Positions 8,208-54,205 are shown, counted from the first letter of the stretch. The stretch: 64,000 bases of DNA from Patescibacteria group bacterium (GCA_038064835.1 JBBTSD010000001.1:100406-164405); one strand, 5' to 3'. A program made the numbers and translations. Notes: generated by a model not told the origin, from the sequence alone.

Positions 8208-9221
8208 ATGGACAAGCAGCTCATCCATGGGGTTACCGTAAACCGACTGAGGCGGGTTTTTAACGGGTTTCCGTTCTCGATACCCGCATACTATGTATCC
8301 GTGGCGGCAAGGAATTTAGGTGCACGAAAGGAGCGGTGGGCGAGAGAACGAGTGGAGGGAAAGAAGTATCCAGAAATTTTAATATGGGACTCGCCAAATT
8401 TTGACGACCCTAGAGCAGGGCTTATTGCAAAAGTAGGTAGCTCGGGTGAACTCACAGAGCTCATTCAGAGCGAGCCGGCGAACGGCATGTTGCTGTGCGA
8501 TGGTAGGGTGCTCAGCGCTCAACATGATGCAATGCAATCCTATTCTTCCGATTTGCAGCAGTCACAAATATTTGCATCGTTTCCGGTGTGGAATGACTTG
8601 CACACTCTTCGGGAATCTCCCAAAGGTATTCTGGTCACATCTTCGGGCACCGACTCTATCACTGAAATCTCTCGAGACGGAAAACAGATTCTGTGGTTGT
8701 GGTGGGCAGGCGAACATGGGTACACAACCGATTCGTTCGGAAAGAAAAGGACTCTGGACAGACAATTAGATCATCGTCATTTCCTGTACAACACATGGCT
8801 TCGAACAACTCATGTGAATTCTGCCCAGCCACTTTCAGATGGGTCAGTACTCGCCTCCTTCTTTCATCAGGGAATCCTTGGATGTATCAACCGCGAGACT
8901 GGGACGGTGACCACAATCGTAGCTGATTTGAAACGGCCTCATGCTGCACGCATAAGCGATGGGAAGGTTTCTTTCGCTGATACAGGTAGGGGCATTGCTT
9001 ATCTCGGTACACTCAAGGGTGATAGGTTTGTGACCGAAAACTCTGTTCAGATTGAAACAAACTGGCTCCAAGACGCACAATTTGTAAACGGAATGTGGTT
9101 TTTAGCCGATGCGCAACATGCGCGGATATACTTTGCGAACAAGGGGGGAGAAGTACTCGCCTATGATCAGTTTGATCCGGAGTGGGACTTTTTTGAGGTC
9201 CTTCCATACAGAGAAGATTAA
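8208..9221 (+). CDS. Hypothetical protein
   Basis: 337-aa ORF with no motif recognised. Confidence 0.35.
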   Translation: MDKQLIHGVTVNRLRRVFNGFPFSIPAYYVSVAARNLGARKERWARERVEGKKYPEILIWDSPNFDDPRAGLIAKVGSSGELTELIQSEPANGMLLCDGRVLSAQHDAMQSYSSDLQQSQIFASFPVWNDLHTLRESPKGILVTSSGTDSITEISRDGKQILWLWWAGEHGYTTDSFGKKRTLDRQLDHRHFLYNTWLRTTHVNSAQPLSDGSVLASFFHQGILGCINRETGTVTTIVADLKRPHAARISDGKVSFADTGRGIAYLGTLKGDRFVTENSVQIETNWLQDAQFVNGMWFLADAQHARIYFANKGGEVLAYDQFDPEWDFFEVLPYRED

Positions 9222-9276
9222 ATTGGCGAAGCCCTTACCCCGCCGCCTCTGGGGCGGGGTAAGGGCTTCGCCAATT
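9222..9276. terminator. Long perfect inverted repeat (about 24 bp stem) immediately after the stop codon; likely an intrinsic terminator or stable hairpin
   Basis: attggcgaagcccttaccccgcc-gcctctg-gggcggggtaagggcttcgccaat, followed by tttactt. Confidence 0.5.
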
Positions 9277-9309
9277 TACTTAAAATAGGTATGCGGGTAA
9301 AATTGCAAC

Positions 9310-14999: not shown

Positions 15000-15115
15000 G
15001 CGCGGTGACCACCTCGGTCTAGGTCGACTTGACTTTTGGTCCAAATGTGATATCATGCCGTCCAGGCGTGTTTTTGCCTGCAAAACTAGACGATAGACGA
15101 AAAAAGGGATGGAGC

Positions 15116-16126
15116 ATGACGCGAATCCTCGTATTGGCAGTGCTTGCACTGCTTTTTGCCACCCCCGCCATGGCCGCTGACACGGTGACATTGACCTGTG
15201 AAAGGGTCCTGGGCTGGTTCTCGTGGATGGGCTTCCTCAAGACTCTCGGCGTCACGGCGCTCACGGTCGGCATCGGCGGCCTCTTCTGGCACTGGCTCGT
15301 TCCAATCGTTACTGCGCTCTGGAAGGTGCTCGAGAAGGTCATCGATATCGCGGCACTCCTCGCGAGCGCCGCACTGATTGCGAGTGGCCACATCACTCCC
15401 GATGCCTACAAGCTCTGGCCGGTCTTGGGCGGGTCTATCGCATTCGGCGCGAGCACCCTGCTCTTCATCGTCCTGCGTAATATCAAGGGCACCAATCCTG
15501 CAGGCCTCTACGCTTTCCTGGCACTCGTCTGGGGTGGCGTCGCGGTGTTCTACGGCATGAGCGAAGTCGGCTTTCTGACGATGGCGGCTGTCATGGGCGT
15601 CCTCGGCTATACCGTCGTCGTCTCGCCGTTCTGCTACGGCTTCGGCTTCAAAGATGACGACCAGATTGCGACTGGAAGCTCGGCTGCGCTCCTGATCCTC
15701 TCAGCTTACACGGTGCAACATATCTTCTTCCCTGGCGCTCCTGCTTGGGTAAAGGTCTTTGCACCAGGCGCGTTCTGGCTTGGGTCGCTGGTGTCGTTCA
15801 CCGGCATTCTAATCATGTCGAATGTCTGGTACGGACGGGGAGCGGAGCGCTCGAACTACGGCCTCATGCAAGCGGTTGCCCTCGTCATCTATCTGGGCGG
15901 CGTCTTCGCCGGCATGACCTTCGGCATCAATCCGCTCGCGGGCATGGCCGGCTTCTTCTTCGTCTTCTGGGTCGCGGCCAAGTTCATCGAGATCCCGACG
16001 GAGAAGTGGACCGGCTTCTACCTCAAGCTGACTCTGATGGGGGCGTTCCTCTCTGGCGTGTGGTGGATTGGCCACCAGAACGAAGCCCACATCATCAAAT
16101 ACCTCACGACGACGCTCCCGATATGA
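15116..16126 (+). CDS. GC-rich polytopic membrane protein of unknown function, inserted inside the ribosomal-protein operon
   Basis: Start at ATG 15116 after GGATGGAG (listed ORF 15029..16126). Signal peptide MTRILVLAVLALLFATPAMAA, then at least 8 hydrophobic helices. GC is visibly higher (about 60%) than the flanking roughly 50% GC ribosomal genes. Confidence 0.5.
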   Translation: MTRILVLAVLALLFATPAMAADTVTLTCERVLGWFSWMGFLKTLGVTALTVGIGGLFWHWLVPIVTALWKVLEKVIDIAALLASAALIASGHITPDAYKLWPVLGGSIAFGASTLLFIVLRNIKGTNPAGLYAFLALVWGGVAVFYGMSEVGFLTMAAVMGVLGYTVVVSPFCYGFGFKDDDQIATGSSAALLILSAYTVQHIFFPGAPAWVKVFAPGAFWLGSLVSFTGILIMSNVWYGRGAERSNYGLMQAVALVIYLGGVFAGMTFGINPLAGMAGFFFVFWVAAKFIEIPTEKWTGFYLKLTLMGAFLSGVWWIGHQNEAHIIKYLTTTLPI

Positions 16127-35616: not shown

Positions 35617-35705
35617 CAAGAGGCCACCAGAAGTAAGGTTTCTGGAGTGCACTCCAAGGCCGTTAGGCCGGTCTTACACTCCAGAAACCTTACTTCTGGT
35701 GGCCT
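35617..35705. repeat. 89-nt near-perfect hairpin (about 30-bp stem) immediately after hepT
   Basis: aggccaccagaagtaaggtttctggagtg-cactccaaggccgttaggccggtcttaca-ctccagaaaccttacttctggtggcct. Confidence 0.5.
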
Positions 35706-36543: not shown

Positions 36544-37910
36544 CGCAGACGACACTCACTTTTTGCGGAGGCACCGGTTCAGTAACTGGTGCTAATTTTT
36601 TACTCGATACCGGAGTAGAGAAAATTCTGGTCGATTGCGGTCTCATCCAGGGTGCGAGTTTTTGTGATGAACGCAATTGGGTGCCCTTTGTCTACGATCC
36701 GCACGAAATCGGCACGCTGTTTGTAACCCATGCTCACACCGATCATATTGGACGAATTCCGCGTCTCGTGCGCCTGGGCTTTTCAGGTGTCATCTACTCC
36801 ACGCTCGCCACGAAAGATATTGCCGAACTCATGTTTGAAGATGCGCTCAAAGTGATGCGAGAAGAAGAAGTTCGTCACGGTAATATGCATGGACTGCTCT
36901 ATGAAATGAGTGATGTAAAAAAAGCACTTTCGTTGTGGCGTACCGTACCGTATCACGATTCCATAAAGCTCGAGGGAGGTATGCATGCACGGCTTTTAGA
37001 CGCAGGGCATATCCTCGGGTCGGCCATGGTTGAATTCTCGCGCGGTGGGAAGAAGTTGCTCATGACAGGAGATTTGGGTAACGAAAATGCACCATTGGCA
37101 CGCCCGACAGAACCTATTACAAATATCGACTATATGGTTATGGAGAGTGTCTACGGCGACAGAAACCATGAGAATACTACGCAACGGAAAGACATTCTTA
37201 AAGACGCAATCCAGGAAACTACTCGCCAAAGTGGGGTCCTTTTGATACCAGCGTTTTCAATTGAACGCACGCAGATCATTCTCGCTGAGATTAGTCACTT
37301 GTTGCGAGAAAAAAGCATCGCTCCCATTTCTGTATACCTCGACTCACCACTCGCAATACGGTTGATGAGGGTGTACCGTGCTCATGCGCGTGATTTGAAT
37401 GACGCAATTCGTGCACGGTTTGAGCACGGCGACGACCCATTCTCGTTCCCAGAGCTTTCAATTACCTCACGAGTCTCTGAGTCAAATACTATCTATTCGA
37501 GTGCAAATCCAAAGGTTATTGTCGCTGGTTCAGGCATGTCTCATGGTGGGCGAATCCGACAGCATGAAAAGCACTATCTCGGTGACAAGAAAACCACTAT
37601 TCTTTTTCCGGGGTACCAGGCTGTGGGGTCCTTGGGGAGGCGACTGGCCGAAGGGGCACGAAGTGTGCGCATTGATGGGGAATGGGTGCGCGTCCGTGCG
37701 CGAATTCGCCAGTTGCAGGGCTACTCGGCACATGCAGATATGGATCAACTGATTGCCTTTGTTGAGCAGGTGGCACCATCAATTCGAAAGGTCTTTGTTG
37801 CCATGGGTGAACCAAAGTCGTCCTTGTTCCTGACACAACGACTGCGCGACTTTTTAGGCGTTGATGCCTCGGCGCCAGGTGTTGGGGAATCTCACACACT
37901 CGACATCTAG
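36510..37910 (+). CDS. MBL-fold metallo-hydrolase with beta-CASP domain (RNA-metabolising, CPSF/RNase J-like)
   Basis: HAHTDHIG (HxHxDH) plus a beta-CASP-like C-terminal half (SAHAD). Confidence 0.6.
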   Translation: MAGMVVAGGTLTQTTLTFCGGTGSVTGANFLLDTGVEKILVDCGLIQGASFCDERNWVPFVYDPHEIGTLFVTHAHTDHIGRIPRLVRLGFSGVIYSTLATKDIAELMFEDALKVMREEEVRHGNMHGLLYEMSDVKKALSLWRTVPYHDSIKLEGGMHARLLDAGHILGSAMVEFSRGGKKLLMTGDLGNENAPLARPTEPITNIDYMVMESVYGDRNHENTTQRKDILKDAIQETTRQSGVLLIPAFSIERTQIILAEISHLLREKSIAPISVYLDSPLAIRLMRVYRAHARDLNDAIRARFEHGDDPFSFPELSITSRVSESNTIYSSANPKVIVAGSGMSHGGRIRQHEKHYLGDKKTTILFPGYQAVGSLGRRLAEGARSVRIDGEWVRVRARIRQLQGYSAHADMDQLIAFVEQVAPSIRKVFVAMGEPKSSLFLTQRLRDFLGVDASAPGVGESHTLDI

Positions 37911-37929: not shown

Positions 37930-38649
37930 ATGGATTTTAATGCTGTACAGGCTGAAAATGATAAAAAGTACGAACTCGATTTAACTCGTGTTCCGCATGC
38001 CCACGGCGATCTCTCATCTGGCGCTTTGGGCAAATTTAAGAGCGACAGCAAGGTGCGTATTTGTGTATCCGGTGCGGCAGAGACAGGGCACTGCGGGCTT
38101 GATTCGTATGAGCTTGCGAAAGAGCTGGGAAGGGAAATTGTTCGACAAGGTGCTATTTTGGTGACGGGGGCTACAACAGGTATACCGCTTTATGCGGCTG
38201 TGGGCGCAAAGGAAGAGGGGGGATTTTCAATCGGCTTTTCTCCAGCCGCAAGCGAGCGCGAGCATGTCGAGATTTATCGTCTCCCAACTGACTACATGGA
38301 CATTATTATATATACCGGTTTCGGCTTCCCCGGACGCGATTTGTTGCTCACTCGTTCTGCAGACGCGGTAATTTTAGGGTGTGGACGCGTGGGAACTATT
38401 CACGAATTTGTCGTTGCGTACGAAGACAAAAAACCAATAGGTATTCTCGAGGGTTCTTGGCACACTGATGAAGTGCTCAAACATATCATGCGCGAGAGCA
38501 ATCGTCCCATGGACAATGTAGTTTCAAATAAAGACCCCAAAGAGCTGGTCGCACAAATGATTACTATGGCAAAGAGAACCAAGCTGGAGCTGAATAGTAT
38601 TTATCGTAATTATGACGGATGGGCAGGGAATGATCGGCGTGTTGTGTAG
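37930..38649 (+). CDS. Rossmann-fold LOG/SLOG-like (TIGR00725-like) nucleotide-binding protein
   Basis: VSGAAETGHCG...ILVTGATTGIPLYAAVGA...ADAVILGCGRVGTIHE. Start at ATG 37930. Confidence 0.4.
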   Translation: MDFNAVQAENDKKYELDLTRVPHAHGDLSSGALGKFKSDSKVRICVSGAAETGHCGLDSYELAKELGREIVRQGAILVTGATTGIPLYAAVGAKEEGGFSIGFSPAASEREHVEIYRLPTDYMDIIIYTGFGFPGRDLLLTRSADAVILGCGRVGTIHEFVVAYEDKKPIGILEGSWHTDEVLKHIMRESNRPMDNVVSNKDPKELVAQMITMAKRTKLELNSIYRNYDGWAGNDRRVV

Positions 38650-38669
38650 CGTTCAATCGCAAGGAAGTA

Positions 38670-38698
38670 TTGACAGATATGTTTTTAAGTGTACAATA
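38670..38698 (+). promoter_or_regulatory. Near-consensus sigma70 promoter
   Basis: TTGACA, 17 nt, TACAAT. Confidence 0.45.
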
Positions 38699-38728
38699 AT
38701 AAATGAAGTTCTTTGATAAGACTTGCGA

Positions 38729-38791
38729 GTGGTCATAGCGAAAAGTGGCTTAACAAAAAACTGAGCAGAGGCCATTTCTCGCTATGACCAC
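38729..38791 (+). promoter_or_regulatory. Long leader hairpin (about 21-bp stem) in the 5' UTR of the 38858 gene
   Basis: gtggtcatagcgaaaagtggc...gccatttctcgctatgaccac (19/21 complementary). Confidence 0.4.
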
Positions 38792-38857
38792 ACAGGCCAT
38801 GGCTCCACCTCGGATGAGAGGAACAGAGACGGGCACATTAGCCCAAGGAGATACACT

Positions 38858-39514
38858 ATGAGCACAGAATTTGCGATTGCCGATGTTTCGCCCGGCAAGC
38901 TGAACGCACTGGTGAAGAACCTCATGCGTCAGACTGGAGAATCCGATCCAAACGAGGCCGTTCGTCTTCTCAACTCGGGTGAATGGGTTGTTTCAAAACC
39001 GACCCATTCATGGCACGAGAAAGACGGCGTCATCTACTTCAATGTCACCTCGGACGGCACGACCGGCGAGGACTGGATCACCCGGCTCGAGAGCAAGGGC
39101 TTCAGCGTGGACAGCTGCGCCAAGCAGGTGCTCCGCTCAGCGGATTTCAAGCCGACCAACGGCGTGACGACCGAAGTCGCCGTCCTCAAAGGCTGTCTCT
39201 TCGAGGAACGGGGCCGGACTACTTCGGTGATCCGCGCCGAGGCCGACAAGAGGAAGCTCTCGAAGCCGAACACCGAGATCACCTGCCTCATCCGTGAGAA
39301 GTTCACCGACAAGAAGATCGAAGCGATGGGTCTGTGGTACATCGTTGCCATGCACGAACCCATCAACGACTCCGGCGGCGATCCGGTCTTGCTGTACGCG
39401 AACCGTAGCGTCGATGGTCGCCGGCTCAAGGCGTGCCACGAGCGGCCTCTCAACGGGTGGCATCGTGACAGCGGGTTCGCGTTCGCCGTGTCGCACGGCA
39501 GTGCTCAACCCTAA
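38858..39514 (+). CDS. Hypothetical protein encoded by a GC-rich gene
   Basis: 218 aa with an AAGGAGA RBS. Body roughly 60% GC versus roughly 50% for neighbours. Confidence 0.4.
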   Translation: MSTEFAIADVSPGKLNALVKNLMRQTGESDPNEAVRLLNSGEWVVSKPTHSWHEKDGVIYFNVTSDGTTGEDWITRLESKGFSVDSCAKQVLRSADFKPTNGVTTEVAVLKGCLFEERGRTTSVIRAEADKRKLSKPNTEITCLIREKFTDKKIEAMGLWYIVAMHEPINDSGGDPVLLYANRSVDGRRLKACHERPLNGWHRDSGFAFAVSHGSAQP

Positions 39515-39635
39515 GCTCCTCGGGACTTTAGTCCTTACAGGACCTGTACACCTTTTGAGCGATTTAAGAAAATCGCTCAAAAGGTCTTGAGAAGCTTCAA
39601 GTATTCGCTTCTCACCCTTTGAACTTAGTCCTTAG

Positions 39636-39665
39636 CCCCACTCCGACGGACGGGGTGGGGCTATT
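39636..39665. terminator. Hairpin between convergent genes
   Basis: agccccactccgacggacggggtggggct, followed by attttcat. Confidence 0.45.
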
Positions 39666-39697
39666 TTCATCAAAGACTCGGCTATGCTATATGGAAC

Positions 39698-42781: not shown

Positions 42782-44113
42782 CTAGAGGTCCCATTCAGGC
42801 GCATCTTGGTATTCGGGCGTAGTGTTCTGCTTTCGGCCGCGGATAACTTCGAGTAAGCGATGCAACGCGATCGAGATATTCTGGAGTGCCTGGCGGTAGG
42901 ATGCGAGCGCAGTCGAACTCAAAGTTCCGTACAGTGGTGCCCGGGCTTTTTCTGTGTACACGGCACCTTCGCCAAATGTAGTTTTTGGCGCCTGGACAGT
43001 AGACTTGTCGGCGATAGAGTTTGTGTCGGTAGTGGTCCTTCGTATCGGTGTATAGGATGCAGCTCTCTCTGCTTGAAGTCGAGCGAGTAGTTCGGGATTT
43101 GGCGAGGGATATGCGGTAGGGGAACTTGATGCAGTACTGCTTGGTCGTGGTGCGATGATTTCTTGGATTTTTGTGGCTGAATCGGGGAGTAGTGTGGTGG
43201 TGACAGGTGCTGTTCCACGGGAAGTTTCGCCAGGGTTGCCGGGAGTAACTGGTGCAACGGATATGACAGGTTGTGGCACAGGAGGTGCAAAAGCTTGCTG
43301 GATACCAAGGGATTGAGGAAGTGCGGCGCTTGGGATCGCGGGGGGAGGCACTGCCGGTGGCACAACTCCAAGCGCGGTCCCCAATGTTCTTAATAGGCTT
43401 GGTGCGGGTGCGGCTGCCGCAGGTGGTGGCGTCCCACCTACTGCCGGATTGAACCCGGCAGTAGTACATTGCGTGCTATTTGGCTCAAGATGCCACGGCT
43501 CGGTGATGCGACTTCCACGGGGCTTTCCAGGCATCAATGGAAAATCCACCCCATGGCGTAAGGCAATCGTTCCGACAAGCGGTGCACAGTTGGAACCACC
43601 GTTGCATTTTAGGTCGACAGCGATACCTCGTTGATGTGGCGAGCTTCCTACCGCAGCTGCGTAGAGCGATCCTTGCGCTGCACCACGCCGTGCGATCGAC
43701 TGTGCTCGCGCACGCGCTTGGTCTGCTGCATTACGCGCCCCGGAAAAAATTTCCATGGTAATCCCGTCGGCCTCTGCTTCTTTCATAAAATCAGCGAGAC
43801 ATTTTGCGAAGGCGGGATCAAGGTCAGACACATAATACGGTCGTTGTGTCCTGTGTGGCTCGACCAATCGATCGAGGAGATAGCGGTATAGATCTCCGTC
43901 GACAGTTGCGCGACAATTCTGTCTCAGAACAATTTCATCGGCATCGCATACCATTCCCGCGCGAGCAAGGGTAATTCCACGGTTGCGGAGACAGGTGATA
44001 TCGCTTGGGGTTGCGGCTCGACATGCGGCATTGGATATCGCTGGAGATACTAGCAAGACGGTAAACACCGCAGCGCCCACAAAGAGAAAAAACGCGCGCG
44101 AGTCACTGCTCAT
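42782..44113 (-). CDS. Secreted M15-family (VanY / D,D-carboxypeptidase-like) zinc peptidase with Pro/Ala-rich linker
   Basis: Signal peptide from ATG 44113; SSPHQRGIAVDL (SxHxxGxAxD) and ITEPWHLE motifs. The central region is APPVPQPV.../PAAAAPAPS low complexity. Confidence 0.55.
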   Translation of the reverse strand: MSSDSRAFFLFVGAAVFTVLLVSPAISNAACRAATPSDITCLRNRGITLARAGMVCDADEIVLRQNCRATVDGDLYRYLLDRLVEPHRTQRPYYVSDLDPAFAKCLADFMKEAEADGITMEIFSGARNAADQARARAQSIARRGAAQGSLYAAAVGSSPHQRGIAVDLKCNGGSNCAPLVGTIALRHGVDFPLMPGKPRGSRITEPWHLEPNSTQCTTAGFNPAVGGTPPPAAAAPAPSLLRTLGTALGVVPPAVPPPAIPSAALPQSLGIQQAFAPPVPQPVISVAPVTPGNPGETSRGTAPVTTTLLPDSATKIQEIIAPRPSSTASSSPTAYPSPNPELLARLQAERAASYTPIRRTTTDTNSIADKSTVQAPKTTFGEGAVYTEKARAPLYGTLSSTALASYRQALQNISIALHRLLEVIRGRKQNTTPEYQDAPEWDL

Positions 44114-44222
44114 ACAGATAGTATAGCCCACAGGCGTCCGTGCGCTCATAATTGCGCGGTATTCCAGCTGGGGGTATAGTCGAAATGGGTCTGAATAACT
44201 CAATGGAAACAGGGAGTTTCCG

Positions 44223-54045: not shown

Positions 54046-54176
54046 CGTGAGATACCAAATCTGTTGTGCGTTGAGTCTCGAGCATAACGGTAATGTGTGT
54101 TCTCTTTTACTCTGCATTATGTCGGGCTTACGAAGTCCGACAGGTTGTTTAATATCTCATGGGGAAGGACTCGCTA

Positions 54177-54205
54177 CCATGTTGGACTTCGTAAGTCCAA
54201 CATGG
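54177..54205. repeat. Perfect 13-bp-stem hairpin ccatgttggactt-cgt-aagtccaacatgg (GGACTT...AAGTCC family)
   Basis: Related hairpins at 54121-54141 (gtcgggcttacgaagtccgac), 54599-54619 (gttcgactt-cgt-aagtcgaac) and 39521-39533 (gggactttagtcc). Confidence 0.5.

Follow-up and report, generated by a model that had tools for sequence, protein, structure and literature searches.

What kind of gene stands, with an apparent promoter of its own and structured sequence on either side, in front of the end of rplT in the stretch of Patescibacteria DNA analysed here (64,000 nucleotides, referred to below as the window)? Upstream of it lie genes for a beta-CASP RNase and a SLOG-cluster-4 protein, and downstream the convergent genes rplT, rpmI and infC. 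In syntenic relatives, whose SLOG proteins are 63-70% identical, the gene order is DUF2238, beta-CASP, SLOG, a slot, rplT, rpmI, infC and AI-2E, and in four of these relatives the slot holds unrelated small genes with neither a match to the leader nor a homolog of the target gene. Otherwise the block is found only in a 99.7%-identical strain from Hainich groundwater. Since it is missing from the syntenic relatives, it is a lineage-specific insertion of ~1 kb, and to this extent the horizontal acquisition proposed in the preliminary description stands. The block and its gene are as follows.

38660-39692: target module, ~1.03 kb, from the promoter to a possible remnant of a promoter for template-repeat RNA
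38858-39514, plus strand: target ORF of 218 amino acids, with an N-terminal helical region and then a C-type-lectin-like domain (fold weakly supported)

The preliminary description had also taken the gene for an orphan of unknown function. This does not hold: the ORF has 1643 homologs in Patescibacteria (E ≤ 0.01, 55-77% identity); the best 120 of the 1643 are full length and 62-77% identical, and come from many lineages, namely the Vogel-, Uhr-, Niyogi-, Giovannoni-, Falkow-, Taylor- and Liptonbacteria. The 218-residue protein gave no match in profile searches of Pfam, NCBIfam and PDB, and a single, insignificant one in PHROGs. It is the surroundings of the homologs that identify it. Diversity-generating retroelements (DGRs) are recognised by an invariant template repeat (TR), an error-prone reverse transcriptase (RT) whose misreading falls on adenines, and, within a target gene, a variable repeat (VR). 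In three homolog contexts the ORF is followed by a reverse transcriptase (RVT_1) and by a bAvd gene encoded on the other strand; the latter also matches the NCBIfam model 'diversity-generating retroelement protein Avd' with a score under the curated cut-off. In these first contexts a second copy of the final ~130 nt of the ORF lies 300-500 nt further downstream (85-87% identity), and all the mismatches fall at adenines of the downstream copy.

The same pattern is seen in a set of 80 loci from species-representative genomes, 74 of them informative (38 with the downstream repeat and 36 solo). Across the homolog loci the repeat is 80-93% identical to the VR, and 578 of the 675 TR/VR mismatches (86%) in the 38 loci that have it are at TR adenines, one of the 38 (L003) being a pair of paralogs and not a TR/VR pair. 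About half of the 74 loci have the target gene followed by the template repeat, avd and the reverse transcriptase; the 36 solo copies have no TR, with at least 1.5 kb of downstream sequence visible. Hypervariable columns of the protein alignment are confined to the C-terminal 45 residues. Because the differences between VR and template fall almost only at template adenines, the gene encodes a DGR variable protein, and the family is one of DGR variable (target) genes. The 218-residue product is probably a C-type-lectin-like variable protein, the fold being a weakly supported assignment; it has no detectable sequence similarity to TvpA of Treponema denticola (2y3c) or Mtd (1yu0) and is much smaller than these. 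No signal peptide or membrane anchor was seen by eye in its sequence.

An annotation is thus available for a family of more than 1,600 proteins that is devoid of known domains. Roughly one in two of these target genes is a solo copy, and such copies escape surveys that take the RT as their starting point. DGRs of candidate phyla radiation (CPR) bacteria were reportedly the subject of work by Paul et al. in 2017. They make up the 'CPR set' of Wu et al. 2018 (PMC5758913) and clade 2 of Roux et al. 2021 (PMC8144416). The present family resembles these in its Patescibacteria hosts, in the layout of its cassettes, where TR, avd and RT come after a small target gene, in TR/VR differences that are specific to adenines, and in target proteins for which no domain is annotated. 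The window copy departs from them in that TR, avd and RT are all missing from its 64 kb: searches of the whole window by tblastn with the RT and Avd of relatives, and by blastn with the VR, found none of the three. A search for RT homologs returned no protein of this MAG in the best 120 of at least 8000 matches, a result that is uninformative on the presence of an RT.

The state of this copy can be judged from its VR and from the sequence beyond it, in which we find the following features.

39372-39495, plus strand: variable repeat, codons ~172-213, from a 124-nt alignment to the TRs of L018, L020, L021 and L031
39490-39511, plus strand: 3' boundary of the VR (IMH-like), GTCGCACGGCAGTGCTCAACCC here against the family consensus GTCGCAAGTCAGTTCTCAACnC, three substitutions
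39522-39535, plus strand: small hairpin GGGAC-TTTA-GTCC(T), 8 nt past the stop codon, with the palindrome GGGACTTTAGTCC (39522-39534)
39535-39617, plus strand: copy-specific insertion of ~83 nt, which interrupts the family consensus between GTCCC and TTTGAACTTAGTCCTTAG
39550-39565 and 39570-39585, plus strand: perfect hairpin of 16 bp with loop AAGA, inside the insertion
39589-39615, plus strand: second hairpin, 8 bp, inside the insertion
39619-39667, plus strand: TTTGAACTTAGTCCTTAG box and intrinsic terminator, with a 13-bp stem at 39633-39663 (9 GC pairs) and TTTT at 39664-39667
39678-39692, plus strand: possible remnant of a TR-RNA promoter, TCGGCTATGCTATAT here against TCGGCTATAATATT in cassette loci
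39698: stop codon of rplT, directly following the remnant

The window VR differs from the nearest TR, a heterologous one, at 17 positions, of which 13 are TR adenines (binomial p = 6e-6), adenine making up only 23% of that TR. This concentration at adenines indicates that the VR was written, and so diversified, by a DGR in the past. The non-adenine differences from the widespread TR type of L018, L020, L021 and L031 number 4, intermediate between two medians for linked VRs, namely 2 when compared with the cognate TR and 10 when compared with the best foreign one. Over its 3' ~40 nt the VR shows no difference from the nearest TR type, which is compatible with fairly recent homing.

The boundary itself is altered, reading TCGCACGGCAGTG in the window and TCGCAAGTCAGTT in the family. 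(The window boundary has also been given as TCGCACGG.) The boundary motif CGCAAG is present in 31 of 38 TR-linked copies and in 19 of 36 solo copies (Fisher p = 0.013), and is absent here. The 3' flank, which folds well below shuffled sequences (z = -6.5), is changed as well. Its usual order in the family is stop codon, GGGACTTCAGTCCC, TTTGAACTTAGTCCTTAG and terminator, and the ~83-nt insertion splits this arrangement in the window. The TTTGAACTTAGTCCTTAG box and the terminator are kept in most homologs at the same place with differing stem sequences. The palindrome and the terminator noted earlier are thus confirmed, whereas the perfect 13-bp hairpin placed at 39551-39585 turns out to have 16 bp, to begin at 39550 and to belong to the insertion specific to this copy, so that it is not a feature of the family. 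A repeated mobile element was rejected as the source of the insertion, no second copy being found in the window, in the homolog loci L001-L084 or in IMG/VR.

The small hairpin is conserved: in 33 aligned homologs 85% of its cells are paired, and 4 of its 5 pairs show a compensatory change. By analogy, it would be the family counterpart of the hairpin or cruciform at DGR target sites. The BPP-1 element (mtd; Guo et al. 2011, PMC3240598) likewise has its VR at the 3' end of a gene, there of C-type-lectin fold and here probably so, a VR-specific 3' boundary distinct from the TR flank, and, a few nucleotides downstream, a short inverted repeat with a 4-nt loop; the hairpin has 5 bp and a TTYA loop here, against 7-10 bp and a GRNA loop in BPP-1. 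Further downstream, comparison by eye with cassette loci showed an 8-nt identity in a similar context at 39678-39692, a weak resemblance to a TR-RNA promoter that would fit a deletion of TR, avd and RT.

Because the boundary, its pairing with the leader (described below) and the 3' flank are all damaged, we infer that this copy is stranded and frozen, probably a target on which diversification has ceased. Set against this, the reading frame is intact, the leader has a high covariance-model score (126.9 bits), and there is no sign of decay of expression. We hold it to be likely that the block is a DGR target module, stranded, frozen and still expressed, with a leader that acts in cis as an element of the mRNA. 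A sigma-70-type promoter would drive an mRNA with a structured leader of ~154 nt, encoding the variable protein of 218 residues; the last ~125 nt of the ORF would be the VR, with the short DGR-type hairpin and the intrinsic terminator behind it. In relatives, the RT would copy the TR RNA with misincorporation opposite adenines, and the cDNA would overwrite the VR. In the window, where TR, avd and RT are missing, past diversification would have left the adenine signature in the VR, and the frozen target would presumably still be expressed from its own promoter.

The main alternative to a frozen copy is an active one, diversified in trans by a TR-avd-RT cassette elsewhere in the same genome. The analysis covers 64 kb of a contig of 330 kb, and the VR could still be acted upon by a DGR lying in another part of the genome. 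Wu et al. 2018 (PMC5758913) document DGR targets that are non-adjacent or remote, and one MAG of our set carries both a linked (L049) and a solo (L010) copy. The low count of non-adenine differences (just 4) and the identity of the 3' 40 nt would suit such a target. The contig of the 99.7%-identical strain, with a coverage of only 3x, breaks off 36 nt short of the VR, which a polymorphic VR would lead one to expect. We nevertheless regard trans-diversification as rather unlikely. RT, Avd and TR are absent from the 64-kb window, three substitutions lie in the VR-specific boundary, and an insertion interrupts the 3' flank. In the MAG with both kinds of copy, the solo VR has 5 non-adenine mismatches to the resident TR, clustered at its 3' end, which argues against recent homing there; the solo copies in this MAG are not being overwritten.

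Upstream of the ORF, the promoter and leader have the following parts.

38670-38697, plus strand: putative sigma-70-type promoter, TTGACA (38670-38675), 16-nt spacer and TACAAT (38692-38697), 11 of 12 matches
38707-38728, plus strand: 5' single-stranded segment of the leader, AGTTCTTTGATAAGACTTGCGA, with the core GACTTGCGA at 38720-38728, complementary in the family to the 3' boundary of the VR
38729-38791, plus strand: leader hairpin P1, 22 bp (13+9) in the window, from the MFE fold
38808-38821, plus strand: leader hairpin P2, CCTC/GAGG with loop GGATGA, 3 of 4 pairs covarying
38831-38850, plus strand: leader hairpin P3, GGGC/GCCC with loop ACATTA, 4 of 4 pairs covarying
38845-38850, plus strand: Shine-Dalgarno sequence AAGGAG, abutting P3

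Both elements of the near-consensus promoter were correctly recognised in the preliminary description, with a spacer one nucleotide too long (17 nt). The number of promoter-like matches, 1 in 3.5 kb where 2.7 are expected, is not above chance when taken alone. Equivalent -35 and -10 elements are found ~7 nt upstream of the start of the conserved leader in most homolog loci, and the elements in the window would place the transcription start near 38704. The structured leader of 150 nt proposed earlier is borne out at ~154 nt: the fold of 171 nt has an energy of -59.9 kcal/mol, with z = -6.6 against shuffled sequences. Its large hairpin is also real, the stem having 22 bp and not 21.

The 5' UTR is conserved in nearly every homolog locus. 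An alignment of 47 sequences with MAFFT, folded with RNAalifold, gave three helices, P1 (20 bp), P2 and P3. In the family, P1 consists of 12+6+2 bp with an A-rich internal loop, and 15 of its 20 pairs show compensatory changes; for P3, GC versions occur in 33 sequences and CG versions in 31. A covariance model built from the leader has a single match in the window (38710-38860, 126.9 bits, E = 4e-31) and 70 further matches, upstream of homologs. The resulting alignment holds 71 sequences, with 97.1% of its cells paired (30-48% after sliding of the strands), and 22 of 28 pairs have compensatory changes. The covariation score of 0.372 compares with 0.122 for shuffled alignments, none of 500 shuffles reaching the observed value. 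While the 71-sequence alignment was fitted to the model, the independent MAFFT and RNAalifold analysis gave the identical three helices. The leader is thus a conserved, covarying RNA of three hairpins.

We found no known RNA to which it corresponds. Rfam 15 (4227 families) gave only noise between 38000 and 40300 at E ≤ 10, in the form of miRNA models on the long stems; it gave only tRNAs in eight cassette loci at the gathering score, and no match in L011 (5700-7600) at E ≤ 1. No match to the 'RT' motifs of Weinberg 2017, which lie near RT genes, was seen in these loci, and full-text literature searches yielded no description of a conserved target-gene leader in DGRs. The leader would therefore make an RNA family absent from Rfam. 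It is not confined to the family studied here. In genome loci it also precedes other small proteins with VR-like C termini, and a metagenome scan for the P1 sequence found the 218-residue family in 54 of 107 downstream ORFs, the remaining full-length ORFs encoding mostly other proteins of ~190-240 residues with endings such as WWFAGVRK and QVFSRN. Since it stands upstream of several target families, the leader is a mark of the DGR target genes of this clade and not of one protein family.

Its conservation and structure make a regulatory role plausible. With riboswitches and ribosomal-protein leaders it shares a conserved, covarying 5' UTR that ends beside the Shine-Dalgarno sequence; it differs from them in its association with DGR targets instead of a pathway, and in a proposed long-range pairing with the far end of the ORF that it precedes. 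Two candidate devices were rejected. A leader peptide (ATG at 38703, ORF of 11 codons) exists in this copy only, the homologs reading CATAGTTC, and a switch in which the 5' strand of P2 would compete for the Shine-Dalgarno sequence is not maintained, on inspection by eye, in lineages with a variant P2.

The long-range pairing would join the 22-nt segment 5' of P1 to the 3' boundary of the VR, the canonical pair being GACUUGCGA and UCGCAAGUC, and the helix covers the last bases of TR homology together with the VR-specific flank. Variant boundaries are accompanied by matching leaders (CCAACUUGCGA with UCGCAAGUUGG, AAUUUGCGAAA with UUUCGCAAGUU and GGACUGAUUUGC with GCAAGUUCAGUCC), and matching leaders and boundaries also occur outside this protein family (ACAGAAUUGCGAGA with UCUCGCAAUUCUGU and AGAGAAUCUGA with UCAGGUUCUCU). 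In the anchored alignment the paired share of cells is 73.5%, and sliding lowers it to 42% or less, the core being anchored by construction and 24 of 71 genome loci giving no anchor; one flanking pair occurs as GC in 15 sequences, AU in 14 and UA in 3. Scans without an anchor gave the best duplex of the whole ORF within 50 nt of the stop codon in 20 of 42 loci of the family (3.3 expected) and in 12 of 36 loci of other families (2.9 expected). Of 32 linked loci, 28 have a leader that favours the VR end over that of the TR (p = 4e-5), and cognate leaders and boundaries pair better than permuted ones in 1000 of 1000 permutations. Judged by their sequences, leader segment and VR boundary are thus complementary across lineages. 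In the window the boundary partner is mutated and the complementarity is lost.

If it forms, the helix would close the mRNA of the family into a loop of ~800 nt. The leader might then control translation or stability of the target mRNA, or might mark or insulate the VR boundary for the retroelement. As a tentative possibility, we propose that Patescibacteria DGRs have a functional part so far unrecognised, formed by the three-hairpin leader together with its base pairing to the VR boundary, and that the target mRNA or DNA takes part in retrohoming or in its control. Were this so, the pairing might mark where integration of the cDNA ends, might prevent transcripts of the VR from serving as templates, or might couple expression of the target to its diversification, and copies without the pairing, like that in the window, would represent the inactive state.

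The nearest parallel is the TR-Sp helix in the DGR RNA of BPP-1 (Handa et al. 2018, PMC6182149), of 7 bp against 9-14 bp here. Both helices join the 3' junction of a repeat to a distant segment of the same RNA beside a structured region. TR-Sp, however, forms in the template RNA between the TR end and the downstream spacer, and positions the priming adenosine (PMC6182149), whereas the helix described here would belong to the target mRNA, where it would link the 5' leader to the end of the VR, and prefers the VR flank (28/32 loci). Sequence upstream of the VR is dispensable in BPP-1 (PMC3240598), while here the family keeps a leader segment complementary to the boundary. The leader and the pairing appear to be undescribed: neither of them, nor the GC3 excess of the family considered below, is mentioned in the CPR DGR literature that we found or in Rfam 15. 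To our knowledge, all mechanistic work on DGRs rests on one phage element. Here a very large natural family, of thousands of Patescibacteria loci, keeps a covarying helix between leader and VR junction, and its cassette-less copies include natural variants that have lost the pairing, ready-made mutants with which the hypothesis is testable. How the VR is found and replaced by mutagenised cDNA is incompletely understood (PLoS Genet 2026, PMC12875486).

The complementarity might instead act in DNA, as an inverted repeat on either side of the gene that serves, for instance, recombination, inversion or recognition of the target site. Arms of such a repeat would be expected to covary equally, and DNA inverted repeats are known in DGR target recognition (Guo et al. 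2011, PMC3240598). The helix has 39 G.U pairs against 25 A.C mismatches, so modest an excess that pairing at the RNA level, though favoured, is short of proof. We consider a DNA repeat distinctly improbable, on the grounds that no recombinase gene is conserved beside the modules, that the arms are only 9-14 nt long and ~800 nt apart, that the pairing appears in the MFE fold of the whole mRNA of ~800 nt for 46 of 65 loci, the window not being one of them, and that the left arm lies just downstream of the putative transcription start, within a transcribed and covarying RNA motif.

There remains the composition of the gene, which was rightly noted as roughly 60% GC. We measure 59.7%, where the window as a whole has 50.3%; among stretches of 657 nt this ranks in the top 0.7% (z = 3.1). 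GC3 is 0.77, against 0.51 ± 0.08 for other long ORFs. The excess is not particular to this copy. Over 77 loci the target gene averages 56% GC (GC3 ~0.7) and the hosts 43% (range 28-55%), and within the same cassettes the target has 58%, the RT 40%, Avd 41% and the host 44%. High GC is thus a family-wide trait of the target gene alone; it is not the footprint of a donor, because the RT and Avd of the same cassettes are at or below the GC content of the host. The part of the earlier proposal that invoked an island from a GC-rich donor accordingly falls. Hence it is highly improbable that the block is a horizontally acquired orphan from a GC-rich donor under a riboswitch or attenuator: an outlying composition, a lineage-specific insertion and a conserved, structured leader abutting the Shine-Dalgarno sequence would be in keeping with this, but the gene has its 1643 homologs, its GC excess is a family trait not common to the co-located RT and Avd, and the leader, three hairpins in series, has no match in Rfam even at E ≤ 10, no multi-helix junction or terminator/antiterminator pair, and follows DGR target genes of several unrelated N-terminal families and not a metabolic pathway.

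Two origins for the high GC were tried and rejected. GC-biased repair through repeated retrohoming is not borne out, there being no gradient of GC3 towards the VR and similar values in linked (0.674) and solo (0.697) copies. Nor does recent horizontal spread explain it: identity at four-fold sites between homologs is only ~0.53, so the spread of the gene is not recent. This identity still exceeds the saturated value of 0.29 for the RT. The other GC-rich stretches of the window, which had been linked to this one through a common family of hairpins, share no sequence with it and encode unrelated proteins, namely a membrane protein (15029-16126) and a Pro/Ala-rich protein (42782-44203).

The DGR variable-protein gene (target gene; 38858–39514 of the window) and all of its homologs keep a GC3 near 0.7, in hosts whose GC content ranges from 28 to 55%. 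This high GC3 is not shared by the neighbouring RT and Avd genes, and synonymous-site conservation is greater in the target gene (0.53) than in RT (0.29). There is no 5′–3′ gradient of GC3 along the gene, and linked and solo copies do not differ. The sole other stretch of the window that matches the target gene in GC (about 61%) is a gene for a multi-pass membrane protein of 365 aa at 15029–16126, just 3′ of rplB; it lacks the leader motif and does not resemble the DGR module.

Many positions in the homologous modules have taken up very small GC-rich palindromes of the TCCGCCAGCTGGCGGA or CCTGCCTGCCGGCAGGCAGG type. Among these positions are the loops of leader hairpin P1, the P2–P3 spacer, the 3′ flanks and the ORF itself; there, one palindrome adds 'PPAGG' to the protein.

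Examples of mini-palindromes in homologous loci (L-numbers)
L016, ~5900
L054, ~5870
L023, ~5960
L034, 6660–6680
L008, 1560–1585
L003, ~960, inside the ORF
L055 and L074, at the end of the variable repeat (VR)

Their appearance suggests a Patescibacteria family of mini-hairpin insertions, and the 83-nt insertion of the window (39535–39617) occupies the same kind of site. Three other long inverted repeats of the window show no sequence kinship to the hairpins of the target module.

Long inverted repeats elsewhere in the window
35621–35705, arms of 29 nt, perfect
9219–9278, arms of 26 nt, perfect
54119–54203, arms of 24 nt, 88% complementary

In cassette loci, where the target module is followed by the template repeat (TR), avd and RT, a conserved and apparently structured RNA of ~100 nt (GGCAGTAGGTGAATATGCGGACGGTCAAGGCTTTCCGCTACCG...) lies between the promoter of the TR transcript and the TR (for example, L011 6720–6960 and L012 1440–1680); it has no match in Rfam 15. 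Several of these loci carry tRNA genes directly 5′ of the target module (L011 5109–5439, L021 5714–5784 and L019 55–125), which hints at insertion of the module beside tRNA genes.

In a strain with 99.7% identity, the contig (L204; ENA ERZ1292639, 3637 bp) ends at the equivalent of window position 39336, 36 nt short of the start of the VR, and many homolog contigs are only 0.9–1.8 kb long. Assemblies may have broken here because the sequence is hypervariable or occurs in several contexts, or the cause may just be low coverage (3x for L204).

The spacer between the SLOG gene and rplT is a variable slot among relatives, where each lineage has its own small unannotated genes (L205 5037–5749, L206 4745–5839 and L207 4796–5308 in syntenic contigs); in the lineage of the window it is filled by the DGR target module. 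The SLOG-cluster-4 ORF as listed has a TTG start, and its first 50 nt (37861–37910) also belong to the end of the beta-CASP gene. Since its homologs are ~240 aa long, the ATG near 37930 is probably where it really begins.
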